This document shows positions 42,319-56,399 of a stretch of DNA of 64,000 nucleotides, one piece after another. This stretch comes from Candidatus Obscuribacteraceae bacterium (lineage in GTDB: Bacteria > Cyanobacteriota > Vampirovibrionia > Obscuribacterales > Obscuribacteraceae): the NCBI GenBank assembly GCA_044229845.1, contig JBGASG010000002.1, positions 320,001 to 384,000 on the forward strand, in the 5' to 3' direction. The stretch's first letter is position 1, and each line of letters starts with the position of its first letter. The notes beneath the pieces are model-generated. The model saw only the letters and a program-made list of their open reading frames with translations. It ran no database searches and was not told where the DNA came from. The translations under genes and the position numbers were made by a program.

Positions 42319-42392
42319 TAGAGTATTCAATCCAGAACACCCGTTTGTTAATTCCCAATTCTAGCCCTCATGCACCCCCCAAAAAAAATCTG

Positions 42393-42468
42393 AAGTGATA
42401 TCGCTTTGAGTCGAAACTGAAGCGATATCGCTTCAGCTCTGGCGGAAATCGGGAAGTGATATCACTTC
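42393..42468. repeat. Cluster of 3 AAGYGATATCRCTT palindromes (family locus 2)
   Basis: AAGTGATATCGCTT 42393; CTGAAGCGATATCGCTTCAG 42417-42436 (perfect 20-mer); GAAGTGATATCACTTC 42453-42468. Confidence 0.9.
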
Positions 42469-42672
42469 AGTTCTGACGGTAGTCATGCGCTGAGGTGTCC
42501 GCAAACACGCTGCGTGCAATTTTCATCCTAAATTCGAGTATGGCGAAGTGGTCAGCATAGTGCATCGAATTCGCAAGGTATAGCTCGAAACAGCCGGCTG
42601 ATGTGATGCAGGGCGCGTGACACCGCATATGGTATCGATATCCACGCCAGCAACCTGGTGGCATTGCACACT

Positions 42673-43614: not shown

Positions 43615-43846
43615 ATGCTGCCGTTTCCTTTGAAAGGCTGATGGTGCCAATTGTGCCGAGAGTCGGAGATTATCAGTGACGACCGTTAATTTGAGCAGGT
43701 TCCTTGTGGCTTTCAACAAATTTGCCACAAATGAACCCTACTATCAATTCGGGCAACGCTATCTCCCCCTCTAGTTTTGCCTGCCAAAACCGCCACCTTT
43801 GCACCATCTTTTCTAAACCTGCCGATTGCAGGGGAGTTTCAATCGC

Positions 43847-46800
43847 ATGTCCGATCCCCCCGGAACAGATCCTTTTGAAGTTGTAGAAACTGAATCAGCA
43901 TGTGTTGAAGGTCAGACTCGCAGCACCGAAGGACAACGCGCCGCTGCTGAAGCAGAGGACAATTCAGCTGTTCAATGGAATTCCGGCGCTCAAAGAGCAC
44001 TGGCTCGCGTTCGCAGTGAGAGCGGAGCACACGCCGCCGTCATGGAAACGTTCGACGCAGGCAATGGTTTCTCACTCGAAGGTCTGCAGCAAGCGGGCAC
44101 ATTTTTGAAGAATCTCTGGGGCCGTGTGCGCGCTGCTGAGTCCGCACCGCTTCCGAGCGCAGATTCGCAGCATCCGACAGCCAGCGAGTCCGGAGACCCG
44201 AGTCCCCTCGGTCAGCCCGGGCAACCTGGTAGTGGCTCGCCAACTGCGCTGGCTCCGTTGGTTCCGCCTCCCGGCGGAAAAAACAAATCGGTGGGAGCGG
44301 TGAACGAAGGTGGTGCCAGCGACTCTCCAGAAGACGGATTGCTGGGCGGCGTCAAGAATTTGTTTGGTGGGGCATTCAACTCGGGTTACTCGGGTTGGTT
44401 CGTTCCGAGAGGGCTCCAGCCCAGCGGTTACAGCGGCCACGACAACCACGTAAATGACAATCATGGGAACGGCAATCAGGGGAACGGCAACCAATTTAGC
44501 GATATCGGCGATGGCACCCCAGTCATGCCTCCAGTGCCTGGCGGGAAGAAACACTCCTCGAATTCCGGCACATCCGGTGCCACCACCGATGATACTCAGC
44601 TGCCCTCCGCCGCAGCGACCGCGCTTCCGCTAGACGGATTGTTTACAGAGTTTATCCAGAGGACATTTCGAGGCGGCGCAGTGCACCCTCAGAATGGCGC
44701 ACATGACACTGGTTCGAACGGTGAAGTTGATAACGGACTGAAGGTTTCGAAGCCGGCGAAATCGCCGCTGCCGACCGCCGGTGATTTCGTCGAGGTCGCG
44801 ACGGCCGGCACGGTTGGAGCTGCGGGCACGACAGGCACCATGGCACCCGGCGATGACAAGAATCGCACCACATACACTACCAGCTGGCAGAATATTTTAA
44901 AGACGTTCGGATTCGATTTCACGGAGCCCCAGCCAGAGTCAGGCGGACTCTCTGCGCAACCGATCAAGAAACCCAACAGCCCAACGCCCCTCAACAATGA
45001 CGGCGCACCGGGAACGGTCGGCGGAGTTCCCGGTGTTCCGGGCGGCGCTCCCGGTGATCAGGGTACCACTAATGTCGTGCTGCCTCTGTCCGGAAAACAC
45101 GGCGAACAGAACAAAGAGAACGGCGAGGAAGAAACGACCAAAGCATTGAAGTCGGCGTTCGCATTCGGCCAATCTACTTTGATGACGCTGCTCGGTGATT
45201 ACACTCCACCGTCCAAGCGTCAGGTAGATCCGCCCCCGTCCGGCGGCAGCATCAATAACACCGACGAAATCCAAAATGCCCAGACTCGACGCCACGAGAC
45301 CAACAGCAATTTGACACCAGGGGTCGCTTCGCCAGGAAAAACGGAAGTGGCTGCGGTAACAGCGCAACAATACGAAGACATAAAGCGCCAACTCGGCTTC
45401 TTCGGAACTTTTTTCCCGACCGCCGAAGAACTGAAGTTACCGGGCGGTGGTACCACGGTCACTAACGGCACGATTTCCCTCCCGGAACTCAAACGCATCG
45501 TCACGATGGGATCGGAGACACTACAGAGCGGCTTTCATGCCTCAGCCGACGCAGTGACGGCCGGAACGTCGGGATCAACAAGTGAGCAGCAGACGTTAGC
45601 GCTCAAGAAAATACCTAGCATTTTCAATGTGTTCACCAACGAGTTCGTCGTCGAGAATGGCGGTGGCACAGCAATCAGCGAACCGGTGAAAAAGGCGGGC
45701 GCGTTCATTTTGACCACCGCGAACGAACCATTCTTTAAGGATGACCCCAACCTCAGCAACCTCGGGCAGCGCCCGGCATTAGTCAAGCAAGAGAATGTCA
45801 ACGAACCAGCCGAGTTGCACCGCCTGCCGCTTGCTGCCGCGCTGGCGTCGGCTGTCACCGACACCGCCGCGGATCTGACGCTGAACGCCAGACCGCTGAA
45901 GATGGTCGAAACTGCGCTTCTGGACGCCGGCAGATTTCAATCGGCGTTGCTGCGCAACAGTGCGGCAGAAACCGAAGCAATCGCCGCGCTTAAGGTAAGC
46001 ACTGTCGAGCGATTGCAGTCGAGCTGTGCTGATGTTTCGTCCGATGTACGCGTGGCCGCGCCTGATGTCCGCGTGGCTGCCTCTGCAAACGAGAAATTGG
46101 ATAACCCAGCGCCCGATGCACCACGCGTGCTCATGGCTGGATTCACCTCGAAACCCATTGGTACAGAGGATCAAACCGCTTCCGGAGCGTTGAGAATTCC
46201 GCCTCTCGGATCGATGTTGTCGATAGCCGGTCTTGCCCGCGAATCGATGGACGCCAACGCATCGTTATTGCTTGGCAAACTCAGCGACCAGGGGTCATTG
46301 AACGGCAAACTACCACTGGGCGAAATGATCGGGGTGGGCAAAGTTTCCACAAATATCGGTGCCACCGACGGCATCGGAAAACTGCCGCCAGGCATAGCAG
46401 CTGCCGACGGCAAACTCGCTCAATCTGGGGAGTTCGGCAAAACTATGCTGGCCGAGATCACCCGATTGGCGCAACTGATTGAAGCCGGCAAGAACGGCAG
46501 CCTGATCTCTGCCGGGGGACGATTCCCAGGCATGATCGACATCGGCAAACCGGGTGAGAACATCGTCATACCAGGCCTGGAAGGACGCATCGGTCGCGGC
46601 GCAGTAAATGTCAGTGTCGGGGTCGGAGCCGAGGTTCTGGGAGACCGCGGTGCTCGTTTTGTGGCTACGGATATAGCGAACAAGGGCATCGGAATTGTCA
46701 TCGCCAGCGGCATCGAAACCACGCTCGCAGGAGATCGAATTGGTCTGATCATCGGCAAAGGCGAACGAATCCCCTTCACCGAAGTGATCAGTATTCGTCC

Positions 46801-48499
46801 GGCGGGAGATCAATCAGGATTCACTTTGACCATTTCCACTGCAACCGGCGAGAAGGTTATCCGCGGCGGCGGCAAGAAGAAGGATCCAGACGAAGAAGAT
46901 GCGGTGACCGACGATCAGAGCAACGGTGGACTGGGATACTTCACCACCGGACAGGATCCACAAAATCAAGATCCAAATAATCCTGGAGGGTCATCTGGCA
47001 CCGATCCGCAATCACTCGCGGCGGTCAGTCAAATCGACCCGAACTCAATATTGCCCGGGATCACAATTGTAATGACCGGACCAACCGATCCAAATGCTAA
47101 TGCCAGCGCAGCCGCAAATCCAACTTCCGTCGCGCAGATTGTCCAACCACCAAATGCCCAGATGGAGTCTACCGGTACGCAGTTCATCACACCAGCAACC
47201 GTCGCGCTGGTAAATACCGGACCCGAATCTCCAGTTGCTTATTCAACCAATCCTCAGCCCGCATCTCTGGCTCAGACAGAATACGTGCAGGCAACAAGCA
47301 CGTATCAAGAGGACACTCCCACGCCAGCGCAGCAGAGCACTCCTTCAACAGCGCAGCAGATTGCTGCCACTGCGCAAACGCAGGACTCTCCCTCCACGCA
47401 ACCCGACACTTCTTCAATCCAGAAACCGGACACTCCTTCCTCCACACAGACGGTCCAAGATCCTGTAACGGCACAGCATGTTCCAGCCTCTATATTCAGC
47501 GTTGAACCAATGAACTCGGTACAGCCGTCCGTTACTACAACGCAGGATCAGATTGCCACAGTTCAGCCATTGCCGACCGCTGATTTCACTCCGATTGGCG
47601 GCCAACCACCACAAGCGTTCCTACAGCAAATGTTGGATGCTGTGTCGCCTGACGAACGCGCTCCAGAAGAGCAGGGAACACAACCGAATCAGGCTACTCA
47701 CTGGATTGATCCAACTCAATTTTCGACCCATCCCGATCCGTATGTAGCAACATCAGCAACATCGACATATGAGACAAGTCAAATTCCTGACTGCATGGAG
47801 ATGCGAGCTGATTTGAGTCAGGAAAAAGTTCCAGAGCGGCGGATCGATAAGGACGACGACGATAGAAATAGCGAACTAGAGACACTTCGTTCCTGGAAGG
47901 AAAAGGAAGCTCGGCGCATGATGGACACACTCCTGGCCGATCAAGCAACCCGCAAGGATCAGCGCCTCTTCGTAGAAGAAGAAGTTCGCACGCGCTACAT
48001 TGTTCGCCCCGGCGACACACTCGAATCGATCGCCGCCAGCGTGCTGGGCGACAGCCGACTGGCGTTGCTAATTTTCAGAATCAATCGCCCGGTGATCCGC
48101 GTTACCTATCGCGACAACAAACAAATCATTGTTTTGAAACCGAATACCATTTTGCAGATGCCTACGCGAACTGAGATCGAGATGTTCCGCGCTACGATGA
48201 GCAGCAAGAAACCCAAGAAATCACGACAATATGTCAGCGACGGCGGACCAACAACGCGCATCAATTACACCGTCAGGCTTGGCGATACCCTGCGCACAAT
48301 CGCAACCCGCCATGCGTCCCTCCAAGACGGATCACTGTGGACATTGATCGCCGAGATCAATGGACTGAGTTCAGCTGCTGACACGAGTGGGACGCCAACT
48401 GCTCGCATTCAACGCGGTACGACCTTGATACTGCCTTCGAGTGAAGAGATTAGCGAATTCCGAGCACGTCAAACATCCGCAGTTCAGAATGCAGTATAA
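43847..48499 (+). CDS. Giant low-complexity protein with two C-terminal LysM-like domains
   Basis: YIVRPGDTLESIA..LIFRIN and YTVRLGDTLRTIA..LIAEING..GTTLILP; the rest is largely disordered. Confidence 0.8.
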   Translation: MSDPPGTDPFEVVETESACVEGQTRSTEGQRAAAEAEDNSAVQWNSGAQRALARVRSESGAHAAVMETFDAGNGFSLEGLQQAGTFLKNLWGRVRAAESAPLPSADSQHPTASESGDPSPLGQPGQPGSGSPTALAPLVPPPGGKNKSVGAVNEGGASDSPEDGLLGGVKNLFGGAFNSGYSGWFVPRGLQPSGYSGHDNHVNDNHGNGNQGNGNQFSDIGDGTPVMPPVPGGKKHSSNSGTSGATTDDTQLPSAAATALPLDGLFTEFIQRTFRGGAVHPQNGAHDTGSNGEVDNGLKVSKPAKSPLPTAGDFVEVATAGTVGAAGTTGTMAPGDDKNRTTYTTSWQNILKTFGFDFTEPQPESGGLSAQPIKKPNSPTPLNNDGAPGTVGGVPGVPGGAPGDQGTTNVVLPLSGKHGEQNKENGEEETTKALKSAFAFGQSTLMTLLGDYTPPSKRQVDPPPSGGSINNTDEIQNAQTRRHETNSNLTPGVASPGKTEVAAVTAQQYEDIKRQLGFFGTFFPTAEELKLPGGGTTVTNGTISLPELKRIVTMGSETLQSGFHASADAVTAGTSGSTSEQQTLALKKIPSIFNVFTNEFVVENGGGTAISEPVKKAGAFILTTANEPFFKDDPNLSNLGQRPALVKQENVNEPAELHRLPLAAALASAVTDTAADLTLNARPLKMVETALLDAGRFQSALLRNSAAETEAIAALKVSTVERLQSSCADVSSDVRVAAPDVRVAASANEKLDNPAPDAPRVLMAGFTSKPIGTEDQTASGALRIPPLGSMLSIAGLARESMDANASLLLGKLSDQGSLNGKLPLGEMIGVGKVSTNIGATDGIGKLPPGIAAADGKLAQSGEFGKTMLAEITRLAQLIEAGKNGSLISAGGRFPGMIDIGKPGENIVIPGLEGRIGRGAVNVSVGVGAEVLGDRGARFVATDIANKGIGIVIASGIETTLAGDRIGLIIGKGERIPFTEVISIRPAGDQSGFTLTISTATGEKVIRGGGKKKDPDEEDAVTDDQSNGGLGYFTTGQDPQNQDPNNPGGSSGTDPQSLAAVSQIDPNSILPGITIVMTGPTDPNANASAAANPTSVAQIVQPPNAQMESTGTQFITPATVALVNTGPESPVAYSTNPQPASLAQTEYVQATSTYQEDTPTPAQQSTPSTAQQIAATAQTQDSPSTQPDTSSIQKPDTPSSTQTVQDPVTAQHVPASIFSVEPMNSVQPSVTTTQDQIATVQPLPTADFTPIGGQPPQAFLQQMLDAVSPDERAPEEQGTQPNQATHWIDPTQFSTHPDPYVATSATSTYETSQIPDCMEMRADLSQEKVPERRIDKDDDDRNSELETLRSWKEKEARRMMDTLLADQATRKDQRLFVEEEVRTRYIVRPGDTLESIAASVLGDSRLALLIFRINRPVIRVTYRDNKQIIVLKPNTILQMPTRTEIEMFRATMSSKKPKKSRQYVSDGGPTTRINYTVRLGDTLRTIATRHASLQDGSLWTLIAEINGLSSAADTSGTPTARIQRGTTLILPSSEEISEFRARQTSAVQNAV

Positions 48500-48692
48500 G
48501 TAGAATTTTCTGATTTTCTATAACAATGTCTTGGATCAAGATCGCATTTTTCGCCGTCATCGCATATATTAATAGGCGACGGACGCGGAGCACCGGACAT
48601 GGTGAAGAAACGAACCAGATGCGAAAACAGCTTTTGCTACTGCAATGCTGAAAATAGCGACAGCGGATATTGCAGCGAAGACTGTGAAGACG

Positions 48693-50013
48693 GAGACTGT
48701 AAAATAATCTGTGTCAAAGGTCAGAGCCCAGGCGCTCACTAGAAAGGAGCCTGACCATGACTAAAAGTACCGACATGCTGGACGAACTCATTAAGGAGCA
48801 TCTGGCACAGGGCAAGCATCCAAAGGAGCTGCTAGCGGAGGGCGGTCTTCTCAAACAACTCACCAAGGCTATCGTTGAACGGTGCCTGGAAGGTGAGATG
48901 GAGGATCACCTCGGCTACGAGAAAGGCGAGCGCGCCGGCAAAGGCGGCGAGAATCGCCGCAACGGGTACAGCAAGAAGACGCTGACCACCGAGCAGGGCG
49001 ACATTACTCTTGGTGTTCCGCGCGATCGTAATGCCGACTTCGAACCGCAGGTGGTGTCAAAGCGGCAGACACGGCTGGAGGGATTCGACGACAAGATCCT
49101 AGCGATGTATGCACGCGGAATGACAGTCCGAGATATTCAGGCGCAACTCAAGGAAATATACGGCGCCGATGTTTCGCCGACCCTCATTTCGAACGTCACC
49201 GACGGCGTTCTCGAAGAGGTGAGAGCATGGCAAAGCCGTCCTCTGGATAATCTCTACCCGATCGTGTTTTTCGACGCGCTCGTGGTCAAGGTTCGCGAGA
49301 ACCAGCGTGTGATCAATAAGGCCGTTTATCTGGCACTAGCTGTGGACACCAACGGACAGAAAGAGCTACTCGGGATCTGGATCTCGCAGAATGAGGGAGC
49401 CAAGTTCTGGCTCGGCATTCTGACGGAACTGAAGAACCGCGGCGTCCAAGACATCCTAATCGCCTGCGTAGACGGGCTCACCGGCTTGGATGACGCAATT
49501 CAAACGGCGTTCCCGAAAACCTGGGTGCAGTTGTGCATCGTCCACATGGTGCGCAATTCGCTGAAGTACGTGTCTTGGAAGGATCGCAAGGCAATGGCTG
49601 CAGACCTCAAATCGATCTACCGCGCAGCCACGGAAACGGAGGCTGCCACGAACCTCGATGCAGTCGCGGCAAAATGGGACCACAAGTATCCGACCGTCAG
49701 CAAGTCCTGGCGCGAACACTGGGCAAAGATAATTCCGATGTTTGCTTTTCCGCACGACATCCGCAAGGTCATCTACACTACCAACGCCGTAGAGTCAGTG
49801 AACATGACGCTACGCAAGGCGAGCCGCAACCACCGAATTTTCCCGACGGACGAAGCCGTGTTCAAAGTCATGTACCTGGCCGCACAGAACATCGCGAAGA
49901 AATGGACCATGCCGCTGCGGGACTGGGGCGCAGCAATGAATCAATTTTCAATAGAGTTCGCAGGAAGGATCGCGCCGTGACTCAACCTTTGACACAAATC
50001 GATTGACAGATCC
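48693..50013 (+). mobile_element. Complete IS256-family insertion sequence (1321 bp)
   Basis: 28-bp imperfect IRs (48693-48720, 49986-50013; 20/28 match) and 8-bp target-site duplication TGAAGACG (48685-48692, 50014-50021). Confidence 0.95.
48757..49980 (+). CDS. IS256 family (Mutator-like) DDE transposase
   Basis: RRNGY, PRDR, FFDAL, CVDGLTG, QLCIVHMVRN, YTTNAVES. Confidence 0.97.
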   Translation: MTKSTDMLDELIKEHLAQGKHPKELLAEGGLLKQLTKAIVERCLEGEMEDHLGYEKGERAGKGGENRRNGYSKKTLTTEQGDITLGVPRDRNADFEPQVVSKRQTRLEGFDDKILAMYARGMTVRDIQAQLKEIYGADVSPTLISNVTDGVLEEVRAWQSRPLDNLYPIVFFDALVVKVRENQRVINKAVYLALAVDTNGQKELLGIWISQNEGAKFWLGILTELKNRGVQDILIACVDGLTGLDDAIQTAFPKTWVQLCIVHMVRNSLKYVSWKDRKAMAADLKSIYRAATETEAATNLDAVAAKWDHKYPTVSKSWREHWAKIIPMFAFPHDIRKVIYTTNAVESVNMTLRKASRNHRIFPTDEAVFKVMYLAAQNIAKKWTMPLRDWGAAMNQFSIEFAGRIAP

Positions 50014-50143: not shown

Positions 50144-51289
50144 CTAAATAGTCACTAGCGGCGGCGATACATAAGACCTGACTTGCAGATCGCTAATTGG
50201 GTCTGCTCGGCGACATGCTGCGAGCAAGGAACCTTGCGGCCAGCGCTCTGGATTGACGAAGAAACAGTACACAGCCAGATAATGCTGTAAACGCTTTCTG
50301 CTCACCCCCTGATATGTCGCTCGAACAAAGTCAATTGCATTCGACACCCGAGTAGCTAGTGATGCCCCGAGCGTTGCAGAACGCGCTTCACTCTGCTCTT
50401 CAGTAAGTTCATCCGTCCCGCCTCTAACTTCCCTTAAGCGAGCAAATCTCTCTCCCGGAAATCGAATAATTACTCCACTGAATTCAAGCAAAGTCAGTGT
50501 TGAAGCCAGTTCAGCTGGTTCCATTTCCAGTCGATCACGCAAGACATCAAACCAAACCGGCTCCTCAGTTAGCGATTCAAAGACTAACCTCTGAGCCTCG
50601 GTCACTGCTTCTCCAAGTTGTAGGTCTTCCAGATGTATTTCGTGATGCTGCGCGCTGTGGCGTCGATCTTCGTCGCTGCTGATTTCGTCGCTCCCGATTT
50701 CATCAAGTTGCGGCTCATCAAGTTGCGGCTCATCGCCAAACATCCCGTCGATCACCAGTTGTTCAGCCAGAGGATGACTTCCTGCTGGAGTTTCGATGCT
50801 TCGCCGAAAAATGATCTTCGCAAAAGCGCGCGAGGAAACCAATTCAACCCCGTCGACATCAGGCTGTCTTATCAAATCGTCGAGCACCATTCCCATCTTC
50901 TGAAACATCTTCCAAATTGCGCCATAGCTTGCTCCAAGGAAGTTTGCAAACCGATTTGCATTGATCTGAACTCGTCGCTCGAATAGCCAAATCGCAAATA
51001 GCCAGTGCATTGGATCCCTTATCCCTTCAAAAAACGTTCCGGCCGTCAGCCAAGTCTTGGTATGACAATTAGGGCAAAGCATCGTTCGCGCGTCGATGCG
51101 CTCCAGTCCATGCGCTCCGCATCGTTTGCACACATATTCGCGATCGGGATCATCCACTCTGCACAATTCATCAACCTGAGCCTGCGCAGTTGGATAGACC
51201 CTAGAGAACAACTCCATTTCCACCGCAAGCGGATCCACAGTTAGTTCTTGGGCCTTCGATTTTTTCGATTTTCGTGATTCGTTTTGCAT
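50144..51289 (-). CDS. IS1595-transposase-derived protein (Zn ribbon + HTH, no DDE core) with inserted DprA-type winged helix
   Basis: CKRC..CPNC..TAGTFF; W..AIWL..; GAIWKMFQK; WH EEPVWFDVL..LTLLEFSGVI.RFPG; C-terminal TYQGVSRKRLQHYLA. Confidence 0.7.
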   Translation of the reverse strand: MQNESRKSKKSKAQELTVDPLAVEMELFSRVYPTAQAQVDELCRVDDPDREYVCKRCGAHGLERIDARTMLCPNCHTKTWLTAGTFFEGIRDPMHWLFAIWLFERRVQINANRFANFLGASYGAIWKMFQKMGMVLDDLIRQPDVDGVELVSSRAFAKIIFRRSIETPAGSHPLAEQLVIDGMFGDEPQLDEPQLDEIGSDEISSDEDRRHSAQHHEIHLEDLQLGEAVTEAQRLVFESLTEEPVWFDVLRDRLEMEPAELASTLTLLEFSGVIIRFPGERFARLREVRGGTDELTEEQSEARSATLGASLATRVSNAIDFVRATYQGVSRKRLQHYLAVYCFFVNPERWPQGSLLAACRRADPISDLQVRSYVSPPLVTI

Positions 51290-51381
51290 GAGTAAGTCCT
51301 CCTACTCATGTAACGATGTCACGCGCAAAAAAGTTCAATCATCCGAGATTAAATGAATGGGTGACCAAGAGGGTCAAAGCA

Positions 51382-51422
51382 AATAGATATCAGTTCGATG
51401 TAAACCCGAACCGATATCACTT
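51382..51422. repeat. Two degenerate GATATC-core palindromes (family locus 3)
   Basis: AATAGATATCAGTT 51382 and AACCGATATCACTT 51409, 27 bp apart. Confidence 0.75.
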
Positions 51423-51452
51423 GGGCATTATCTACCAGATGGTGACTTTGAC

Positions 51453-55847: not shown

Positions 55848-55857
55848 GCCAAAACTC

Positions 55858-55986
55858 AATAGATATCACTTCCGGATATCAAGGATGCCGAATCGCAAGT
55901 GATATCGCTTGCGATTTTCGTGACGACGCAGAACGATATCACTTCATGATTCCACGAGCGCCATCACTCAAGTGATATCTCTTGAG
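55858..55986. repeat. Cluster of 4 palindromes plus one extra GATATC (family locus 4)
   Basis: Cores at 55858, 55897 (26-bp AATCGCAAGTGATATCGCTTGCGATT), 55931 and 55970 (CTCAAGTGATATCTCTTGAG). Confidence 0.9.
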
Positions 55987-56399
55987 CATTTACGGGTGGA
56001 GTGTGCTCGTTTTCGTTGGGGCTGTCAGGCTGACGTAAGGTTTGCCGTAAGCCTCGTGTCAGGTTCGAGCGGTACATACATAGTTGACGACACAGAGCCC
56101 ATAAAATTTCTGCGGCTCACGTGAATCGTCGCGGCTTGACACTGCTATTGGTGCTCCGAAAAGTGCTTCTGCGGCTGCCTGAGCCCATCTTCACGCATGC
56201 TTCACGCGCATCACCGGTGGGTTGATTCGCAGAAACAAGTGAAGTAGGATCAAAAAAAGCCGGCATGCAATGAACGTTTGCCGAACACAAATCGATCACA
56301 AACGCGGCTACTCAAGAGCGTTTCAATTAGGCACCATATTTGGTGCCACGCATCAGAGGCAGTAACAGACGGTGCACAGTGACACCGTTGGAGGATCAA

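Follow-up and report, generated by a model that had tools for sequence, protein, structure and literature searches.

A catalytically empty IS1595-derived protein with a DprA-type winged helix, and the palindromes around its gene, in Obscuribacteraceae

The gene and its protein

The window analysed here is a stretch of 64,000 nucleotides from the genome of a Candidatus Obscuribacteraceae bacterium (here G000), which was compared with a relative of about 95% identity (G001). The gene under study is located on the minus strand at 50144–51289 and encodes a protein of 381 residues. Its reading frame is intact, as an earlier note on this DNA had said, and contigs from four DNA runs that span the gene show no difference inside it; some of these runs may be the source of the window itself. 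The orthologue in G001 has frameshifting indels, as do 153 of the 515 genes compared, and these are probably assembly errors. In four metatranscriptome runs from three studies, there are contigs on the upstream gene and on a neighbouring IS256 element and none on the gene, although contigs cannot show absence. The IS256 element (48685–50013, with a 407-residue transposase and an 8-bp target duplication) sits in a small Cys-rich open reading frame just downstream of the gene, and is missing from G001 and from three DNA runs. Beyond it, at 43826–48499, there is a 1557-residue low-complexity protein with two C-terminal LysM domains.

The AlphaFold model of the protein (pLDDT 84.8, pTM 0.78) contains a zinc-ribbon hairpin, a helix-turn-helix (HTH), a winged helix and further helices, all encoded on the minus strand. 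The C4 zinc ribbon is at residues 54–75 (51065–51130); its cysteines C54, C57, C72 and C75 are invariant in 86 of 86 aligned family sequences, and it is followed by TAGTFF at residues 82–87. The HTH is at residues 111–140 (50870–50959), modelled as helices 111–118 and 122–140. Next come the sequence VELVSSRAF (residues 148–156, 50822–50848) and a family-specific motif, R-S-x-x-T-P...H-P-x-x-E (residues 162–176, 50762–50806), in which R163 is conserved in 85, S164 in 86, T167 in 83, P173 in 84 and E176 in 84 of the 86 sequences. An acidic linker at residues 183–227 (50609–50743), which varies in length across the family and is modelled with low confidence (pLDDT below 50 at 194–219), leads to the winged helix at residues 228–284 (50438–50608). 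The C-terminal helices are at residues 316–381 (50147–50344) and include TYQGVSRKRLQHYL. The earlier note had recognised the zinc ribbon with TAGTFF, the HTH region, the acidic linker, a winged helix at about 50445–50595 and the C-terminal motif of IS1595 transposases. All of these are recovered here, the HTH and the C-terminal part from the model helices and from alignment to intact transposases, and Pfam places the winged helix at about 50453–50608.

The protein was also proposed to be a transposase of the IS1595 family that has lost its catalytic core, and both parts of this proposal are supported. The NCBIfam profile NF033547 (IS1595) matches with an E-value of 5.2e-6 and 26.5 bits, below its cut-off of 75, and includes the stretch 316–346; the Pfam domains Zn_Tnp_IS1595 and DDE_Tnp_IS1595 have no match at E ≤ 1. 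HHalign, comparing 52 family sequences with nine intact IS1595 transposases, gives a probability of 99.8% (E 3.3e-29) over 287 columns, and the aligned parts common to IS1595 are the N-terminal helix, the C4 zinc ribbon, the HTH and the C-terminal helices. As the note had expected, the first catalytic Asp motif of IS1595 faces VELVSSRAF, where the Asp is lost. The segment carrying the second Asp has no counterpart in the protein, and changes affect both the third catalytic position and the EF..R.N motif. The IS1595 relatives found here are ISXO2-like and have His at the third position; we take them to be the ISSod11 group.

The RNase H sheet is absent from the model, which has only three short two-stranded pairs and no five-stranded sheet. 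The loss of the Asp motifs, the alignment and the model together rule out an intact but divergent transposase. Foldseek found no match in the PDB to the model at E ≤ 0.001, and a profile search of PDB sequences gave nothing better than E 0.002. In a VIA-align search of 48,161 chains, all 50 of the matches listed are winged-helix matches to residues ~217–292, and the rest of the model was barely tested by it. Around the gene no terminal inverted repeat pair or target duplication was found, in agreement with the note, and the inverted repeat pair beside the gene is that of the neighbouring IS256. An intact RNase H-like DDE triad and a lack of IS1595 homology, either of which the note had set against its own reading, were looked for and neither was found.

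The winged helix matches DprA_WH (PF17782) at residues 228–279 with an E-value of 1e-7, above the cut-off of that domain, and matches DprA structure 3maj with Z 8.9 and an rmsd of 1.8 over 56 aligned residues. The DprA of the host can be aligned to the protein only over the winged helix, and the Rossmann-fold ssDNA-binding core of DprA is absent. The protein can be described as the shell of an IS1595 transposase, with its catalytic core gone and a DprA-type domain added. Longer fused forms (747–2130 residues) were not found among 7990 candidates, which is weak evidence. An intact IS1595 transposase that might serve as a helper (PF12762) was found in 10 of 41 genomes, and not in G000, G001, G013 or G024.

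Copies of the gene and their palindromes

Of 103 genomes of one Obscuribacterales-type family, 88 contain the protein family by a profile search, with 1–19 matches each. The protein family was not found in the other 15, in 16 other relatives, or in 400 genomes elsewhere in the phylum. The Atlas clusters of the family are mostly Ca. Melainabacteria and one related record is Ca. Obscuribacterales; two more are titled as other orders, one of them apparently a contig of G010, which is placed in the same family.

G000 has five full copies, with pairwise identities of 27–37%. Counts of paralogues, palindrome adjacency and dN/dS were among the checks suggested by the note, and these three were made. 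Each of the five copies has a 26-bp palindrome upstream, within a cloud of its own, as described below. All five are syntenic in G001 (93–95% DNA identity), and dN/dS is 0.17–0.33 in the five orthologue pairs. The gene is therefore under purifying selection, yet its ratio is well above the median of 0.06 for 515 genes. A quick tree places all ten sampled copies of G013 in one clade, and 10 of the 11 copies of G024 in another. The young G024 copies have neither fixed ends nor inverted repeats nor a target duplication in common, and their homology ends raggedly, at −265/+74, −157/+8, −55/+7, −11/+7 and −50/+346. Within lineages, the number of copies has grown through duplications whose ends are ragged. 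The description of the gene as non-mobile and domesticated thus holds over short times, as the synteny with G001 indicates, and fails over longer ones, given the ten-copy clades in two genomes. The gene can be classed neither with insertion sequences nor with stable single-copy genes of the host.

The window contains 28 GATATC sequences, where 9.9 ± 3.0 are expected, and 0 of 100 shuffles reached this number. Two of these are just upstream of the gene, at 51386 and 51413. GATATC forms the middle of a 26-bp palindrome: of its 1419 occurrences, 97 are flanked by 7 or more matching pairs out of 10, while for the 63 remaining palindromic hexamers the median share is 0.65%. The palindrome centred on 51413 (51403–51428) has a PWM score of 17.6, and that centred on 51386 (51376–51401) is degenerate, with 5 of 10 flanking pairs and a score below the cut-off. 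The window also holds two cloud loci. That at 42387–42473 consists of three scored palindromes (centres 42397, 42424 and 42458) and is kept in G001; that at 55852–55989, with three scored palindromes (55862, 55901 and 55974) and two further GATATC, is kept there with a changed copy number. Across the family, a palindrome is found 40–110 nt before the promoter of nearly every gene.

There are 149 sites in G000, forming 84 loci, and their density depends on the distance to a copy of the gene. It is 19.6 loci per 100 kb at 0–10 kb, 0.56 at 200–300 kb, and 0 beyond; 126 of the sites and 66 of the loci are within 100 kb of a copy, which is 14.6% of the DNA. The fitted half-distance of site density is about 33 kb (2dlnL of 82.6 relative to a flat model), and a contig of 1.07 Mb has no loci. 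Each cloud has its own subtype, such that 66 of 74 loci are assigned to their own cloud by leave-one-out. The palindromes had been described as a feature just upstream of the gene. They are instead a territory of 100–200 kb centred on it, and thus more than an upstream operator. The suggestion that the protein recognises them gains from the tight link of gene and palindrome in adjacency, clouds and subtypes; the binding itself we infer. For the gene in the window, the dense part of the cloud is 71–128 kb to one side (contig C8 of G000, 242–300 kb), beyond a 63-kb site-free stretch that covers most of the window.

Similar patterns are seen in other genomes. All 20 exact matches in G006 are within 85 kb of three copies, and 41 of the 50 sites listed for G007 are centred on genes in the same way, a count that says nothing on the G007 copy without a winged helix, the palindrome of which is missed by the search pattern. 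The single-contig genome G098 has two clouds of different subtype, each matching the palindrome of its own gene; with the broad pattern, background matches swamp the signal in G098 and G206. G098 also has scattered sites, and at C1 2.04–2.16 Mb it has six clustered palindromes where no family gene was detected, perhaps left behind by a copy since lost. A full cloud also surrounds its copy at 3.966 Mb, although that copy is broken into two reading frames. G010 and G013 have sparse clouds. G024 has one old copy with a cloud (9 sites), and 9 of the 10 copies in its young clade have the adjacent site only: clouds are mostly missing around young copies.

Eleven copies have no winged helix, ten of them in genus g21 and one in G007. 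They keep the promoter (see below) and the invariant residues. By a strict count, 8 of the 11 have 6–20 tandem palindromes directly upstream, with a period of about 35–37 bp, compared to 0–4 for 85 domain-bearing copies, and two of the three with low counts also show arrays. Examples are in G206 (C1 near 853.2, 1367.1, 4280.3 and 4379.5 kb) and G186 (L362, L365, L368, L371, L373). The arrays look like CRISPR arrays, but unique spacers are missing from them. In G206, 400 kb around three of the five domain-less copies contain 2 dispersed loci, none scoring at least 20, and 400 kb around three of the four domain-bearing copies contain 18, ten of them scoring at least 20. The domain-less copies of G206 form one nested clade, mixed with G152 copies in a larger tree, and because they are related this amounts to about one independent contrast, in a single genome. 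The winged helix is not essential for the gene, since copies without it persist with promoter and palindromes.

An exponential decay and a subtype match are what one would expect of a protein that acts in cis to copy the palindrome nearby, in the manner of RAYT and REP. This would need a new active site, for which R163, S164, T167 and E176 together with S330, K332, Q335 and Y337 are candidates, being kept at 91–100% over 86 sequences of 25–35% identity. The fact that young copies largely have no clouds would fit as well. However, the protein has no DDE or HUH fold, and there are no target duplications or empty sites. RAYTs have the active site of IS200-type (HUH) tyrosine transposases, to which the 381-residue protein has no Pfam or NCBIfam match. 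Moreover, the copies without a winged helix keep the candidate residues and yet have no cloud. We regard a copying activity as unlikely.

By a crude gene call, 75 of the 84 loci are intergenic, at a median of about 26 nt past the stop codon where one adjoins. This would suit an ordinary transcription factor with the palindromes as its operators or terminators, the upstream one being autoregulatory, as would (weakly) the RNA contigs of the upstream gene, which end near palindromes. The spacers that hold sites are tandem, divergent and convergent in the ratio 45/19/11, against a background of 481/233/121, so that spacer types match the background and convergent spacers are not enriched, which rules out terminators as a class. 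Only 8 of the 149 sites are near a promoter motif, all of them gene-adjacent, and the sites of a regulon would not thin out as one moves away from the regulator gene. A mere regulator is therefore hard to credit.

The sites are stable between the two related genomes, with 61 of the 62 anchorable loci common to G000 and G001, 18 of which differ only in copy number (slippage). The substitution rate is 4.3% in sites and 6.3% in their flanks. Empty sites in G001 that would mark fresh insertions were sought and none was informative, and no gain of a new site was caught. Synonymous divergence between G000 and G001 has no trend with distance from the genes. Persistence of intergenic sites in place, their lower substitution rate and the purifying selection on the gene are consistent with a host-domesticated organiser of the chromosome, which would compact or anchor domains of 100–200 kb during competence or stress; ParB/parS, MatP/matS and RacA/ram are systems for comparison. 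Such a role is, though, difficult to square with copy numbers of 1–19, with 15 of 103 genomes in which the family was not found, with lineage-specific expansions, with domains that are centred on the gene and cover only about 15% of the genome, and with a dN/dS well above the genome median. We consider it quite improbable.

Within a cloud, the two halves of a dispersed site resemble each other no more than halves taken from different sites do, and compensatory changes number 1 among 77 changed pairs. Selection for hairpins at dispersed sites is unsupported (outer-arm excess of 95/220 against 84.6, reached in 625 of 5000 permutations). Because the halves vary independently and compensatory changes are few, the dispersed sites would be bound as duplex by a dimer rather than as a hairpin. 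The gene-adjacent palindromes of other genomes are self-complementary out to 20 bp (0.42–0.56, compared to 0.25), which points to perfection by template switching.

The site may have its source in the transposon itself. In intact IS1595 elements, found in genomes of the same family and in metagenomes, the inner 13 nt of the terminal repeats resemble the half-site (18 elements, 34 ends, two ends being dropped as out of register). For the half-sites of G000 this likeness was beaten by 4 of 10,000 column permutations. It is weaker for gene-adjacent half-sites family-wide (475 of 10,000), and the half-sites of the C6 cloud have no match to the inner repeat. When two inner ends of a single element are joined head to head, 23 of the 26 positions agree with the best site. 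The IS1595 subgroup was picked after the likeness had been seen, and is at most a candidate sister group of the family. The palindrome probably derives from a transposon end. An IS1595 element has been reported to form circles (PMC12561309), and a trimmed end-to-end junction would lie upstream of the gene with nothing downstream, which is the arrangement seen. As for the reader of the site, residues 119–128, the recognition helix, track similarity of the upstream half-site better than any other of 53 windows over 42 dereplicated gene-palindrome pairs; P is 0.0075 for the two HTH windows, but 0.21 once corrected over all 53, which is not significant, and the result is suggestive only. On the basis of homology and this covariation, the HTH is the likely reader of the palindrome, on double-stranded DNA.

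Promoter, winged helix and ComM

The promoter of the gene, TGAACTTT ... CGT, is at 51310–51339 on the minus strand (31.1 bits), and the same motif precedes comEC, comM, yraN and other DNA-handling genes. It is presumably of the ECF sigma type. The motif is found before 39 of 43 copies of the gene, and before 91 of 95 in a larger set (81 of 85 copies with a winged helix, and 10 of 10 without). G000 has 35 matches of at least 22 bits, compared to 3 in a control. The 19 downstream proteins scanned include ComEC, ComM, YraN, PriA, DnaB, DnaE and SbcC, as well as an ECF sigma factor, TnpB, DUF6088 and HTH proteins; two are without family. A protein that we label a ComF-like phosphoribosyltransferase is also in the regulon, and RadC is at a weaker site. 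The gene for the ECF sigma factor itself carries the motif, a candidate for the sigma factor of the regulon is encoded at C4:10453–11076 of G000, and further members are PLD-like/HTH proteins, DUF1800 and several secreted small proteins (example sites in G000 are C4:11148, C14:120017, C18:476381 and C14:86348). The DnaB at C18:312423–314978 has an intein that carries a LAGLIDADG domain. Of 20 comM loci, 16 have the motif upstream; of 30 dprA loci, 2 do, and the dprA of G000 is without it. From its promoter, the gene is likely to be induced in competence; given the replication and repair genes, the regulon may be a stress regulon.

The consensus of the winged helix tracks that of the DprA of the host lineage nearly position by position. 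A T-x-x-E-L pattern is kept (75/93/80% of 60 family sequences, 93/100/93% in 30 DprAs), and its spacing is that of the V. cholerae ComM contacts L350/E353/L354, which are matched here by spacing only. The winged helix of DprA is reported to recruit ComM in V. cholerae and H. pylori, promoting branch migration, and that of H. pylori is reported not to bind dsDNA (10.1101/2024.10.21.619469). On the basis of that report and of the conservation pattern, the winged helix of the 381-residue protein more probably serves to dock the protein ComM than to bind DNA. The earlier proposal of a multi-domain DNA-binding protein would have to be corrected on this point.

ComM is found in 40 of 41 relatives, and that of G000 is encoded at C6:216146–217708. 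It is reported to be required for the transformation-mediated deletion of inserts, and mobile elements to benefit by disabling it (PMC11441513; PMC13663708). Such deletion is described as proceeding via D-loops on both flanks of the insert, which are extended by ComM and YraN (PMC13663708), and a review likewise describes elements as gaining from a blunted ComM (PMC12378983). A family copy is 17–85 kb from comM in three genomes, or from dprA in one (G000:C6:216 kb, G013:C13:536 kb, G024:C10:135 kb, G006:C2:1143 kb), a proximity that may be due to chance.

A possible function and its relation to known systems

The loss of the core, the gain of the domain, the upstream palindrome, the gene-centred and subtype-matched clouds and the common promoter motif are observed. 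From these we tentatively propose that a DNA-binding protein, induced in competence and acting locally, docks ComM and shields its region from replacement by transformation; this is quite possible, if short of probable. The transposase shell would bind, as a dimer, a palindrome that is mostly near its own gene, and the protein would be made during competence. Its action would be local, mostly in cis, because of the gene-centred decay and because the IS1 transposase is reported to prefer acting in cis (PMC12903888). The prediction for the winged helix is that it captures ComM, the helicase of transformation, which, trapped at resident sites, would leave strand exchange nearby stalled or reversed, and the gene would thereby be protected from deletion by incoming DNA. 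A site that resists replacement would spread in the population, and alleles without one would be overwritten, so that sites would accumulate only where the protein acts. New sites are assumed to arise by local copying, followed by slippage.

The same binding and docking could have the opposite sign: ComM would be loaded productively near the gene, long heterologous DNA such as the gene and its sites would be helped to integrate, sites would pile up by a drive like that of uptake sequences, and ComM-assisted illegitimate recombination would make both sites and gene copies. This is what the reported recruitment of ComM by DprA to promote branch migration would suggest (10.1101/2024.10.21.619469). 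It would also suit the dependence of the cloud on the winged helix in G206 and the ragged ends of new copies, which are those expected of illegitimate recombination. Against this, recipients without the gene have no protein, and since dispersed sites show no selection for hairpins, incoming single strands would be poor substrates. A resident-strand site that makes its own replacement more frequent should be lost over time, as recombination hotspots are. We thus find productive loading somewhat unlikely, and the protective direction is the one we infer, since sites promoting their own replacement would be lost. There are also points against any role in transformation, namely that divergence gives no signal near the genes, that the regulon includes repair genes, and that no birth of a site was caught. 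Median recombination tracts reported in other bacteria are 5–6 kb (PMC13663708), much shorter than the cloud, and this too counts against it. Under the protective reading, the gene would be selfish and would have a private territory, in which a disarmed transposase with a DprA-derived domain biases transformation within about 100 kb, such that gene and sites are both hard to lose and the sites build up: a position-limited bacterial gene drive, which we put forward as plausible but not yet as probable.

It is worth comparing the gene with systems already known. With the IS1595 DDE transposases it has a homologous zinc ribbon, HTH and C-terminal motif, and its half-site resembles the inner repeat of one subgroup. 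Those elements have an intact core, a terminal inverted repeat pair and, as reported, an 8-bp target duplication (PMC12561309), whereas the gene has none of these three, and has a competence-type promoter and a foreign winged helix. The closest layout is that of RAYT/TnpA-REP, which is described as a non-jumping derivative flanked by its own extragenic palindromes (10.1101/2021.07.10.451892; PMC8266576), with several protein-repeat groups per genome and vertical persistence (10.1101/2021.07.10.451892). However, RAYT is an IS200-type tyrosine transposase that is thought to be active, while the present gene is of IS1595 origin and has lost its core; and RAYT/REP(IN) repeats are genome-wide, while those described here are confined to a gene-centred territory. 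The docking domain is most like that of DprA, in having PF17782 and the same conserved helix residues by spacing, and comM is under the same promoter motif. DprA has a core that binds ssDNA and loads RecA, and the gene instead ties the domain to a predicted sequence-specific dsDNA binder. The gene thus belongs neither with IS1595 elements, nor with RAYTs, nor with DprA.

In its proposed pay-off, less deletion through lost ComM action, the system resembles the AbaR islands reported in comM (PMC11441513). AbaR disables ComM genome-wide by insertion (PMC11441513), while the present system leaves ComM intact and would act locally, by means of a protein. The uptake sequences of Pasteurellaceae and Neisseria are also short motifs, possibly accumulated by biased transformation (PMC2817400); they are spread over the whole genome, frequently within genes, and are recognised during uptake, while the palindromes are extragenic, local and specific to a gene copy. 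In the literature covered, which included few subscription papers, no system was found that couples an empty transposase, a gene-centred repeat territory and a transformation helicase. We know of none that couples a catalytically empty transposase with a repeat territory and the transformation helicase. The novelty lies in the anatomy, which is observed; the mechanism is read from it.

If the proposal is true, it would be a new move in the conflict of transformation and mobile genes, in which a region is shielded locally instead of competence being knocked out. It would also be a second route, beside RAYT/REP, from a transposase to a system of protein plus palindrome. It would offer a natural experiment on the build-up of repeats, with cloud size, age and domain loss readable across some 90 genomes, and a programmable way to tune the recombination of a chromosomal region up or down.

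It is worth adding that G007 (L354:1186–1998, on contig C7) encodes a form of 270 residues that has neither catalytic core nor winged helix, and an N-terminus that is more transposase-like. It carries the promoter and degenerate palindromes, has one relative at 45% identity, and is a possible early intermediate. Atlas clusters of 268–271 residues are also found at low score, one of them mostly from Thermodesulfobacteriota.
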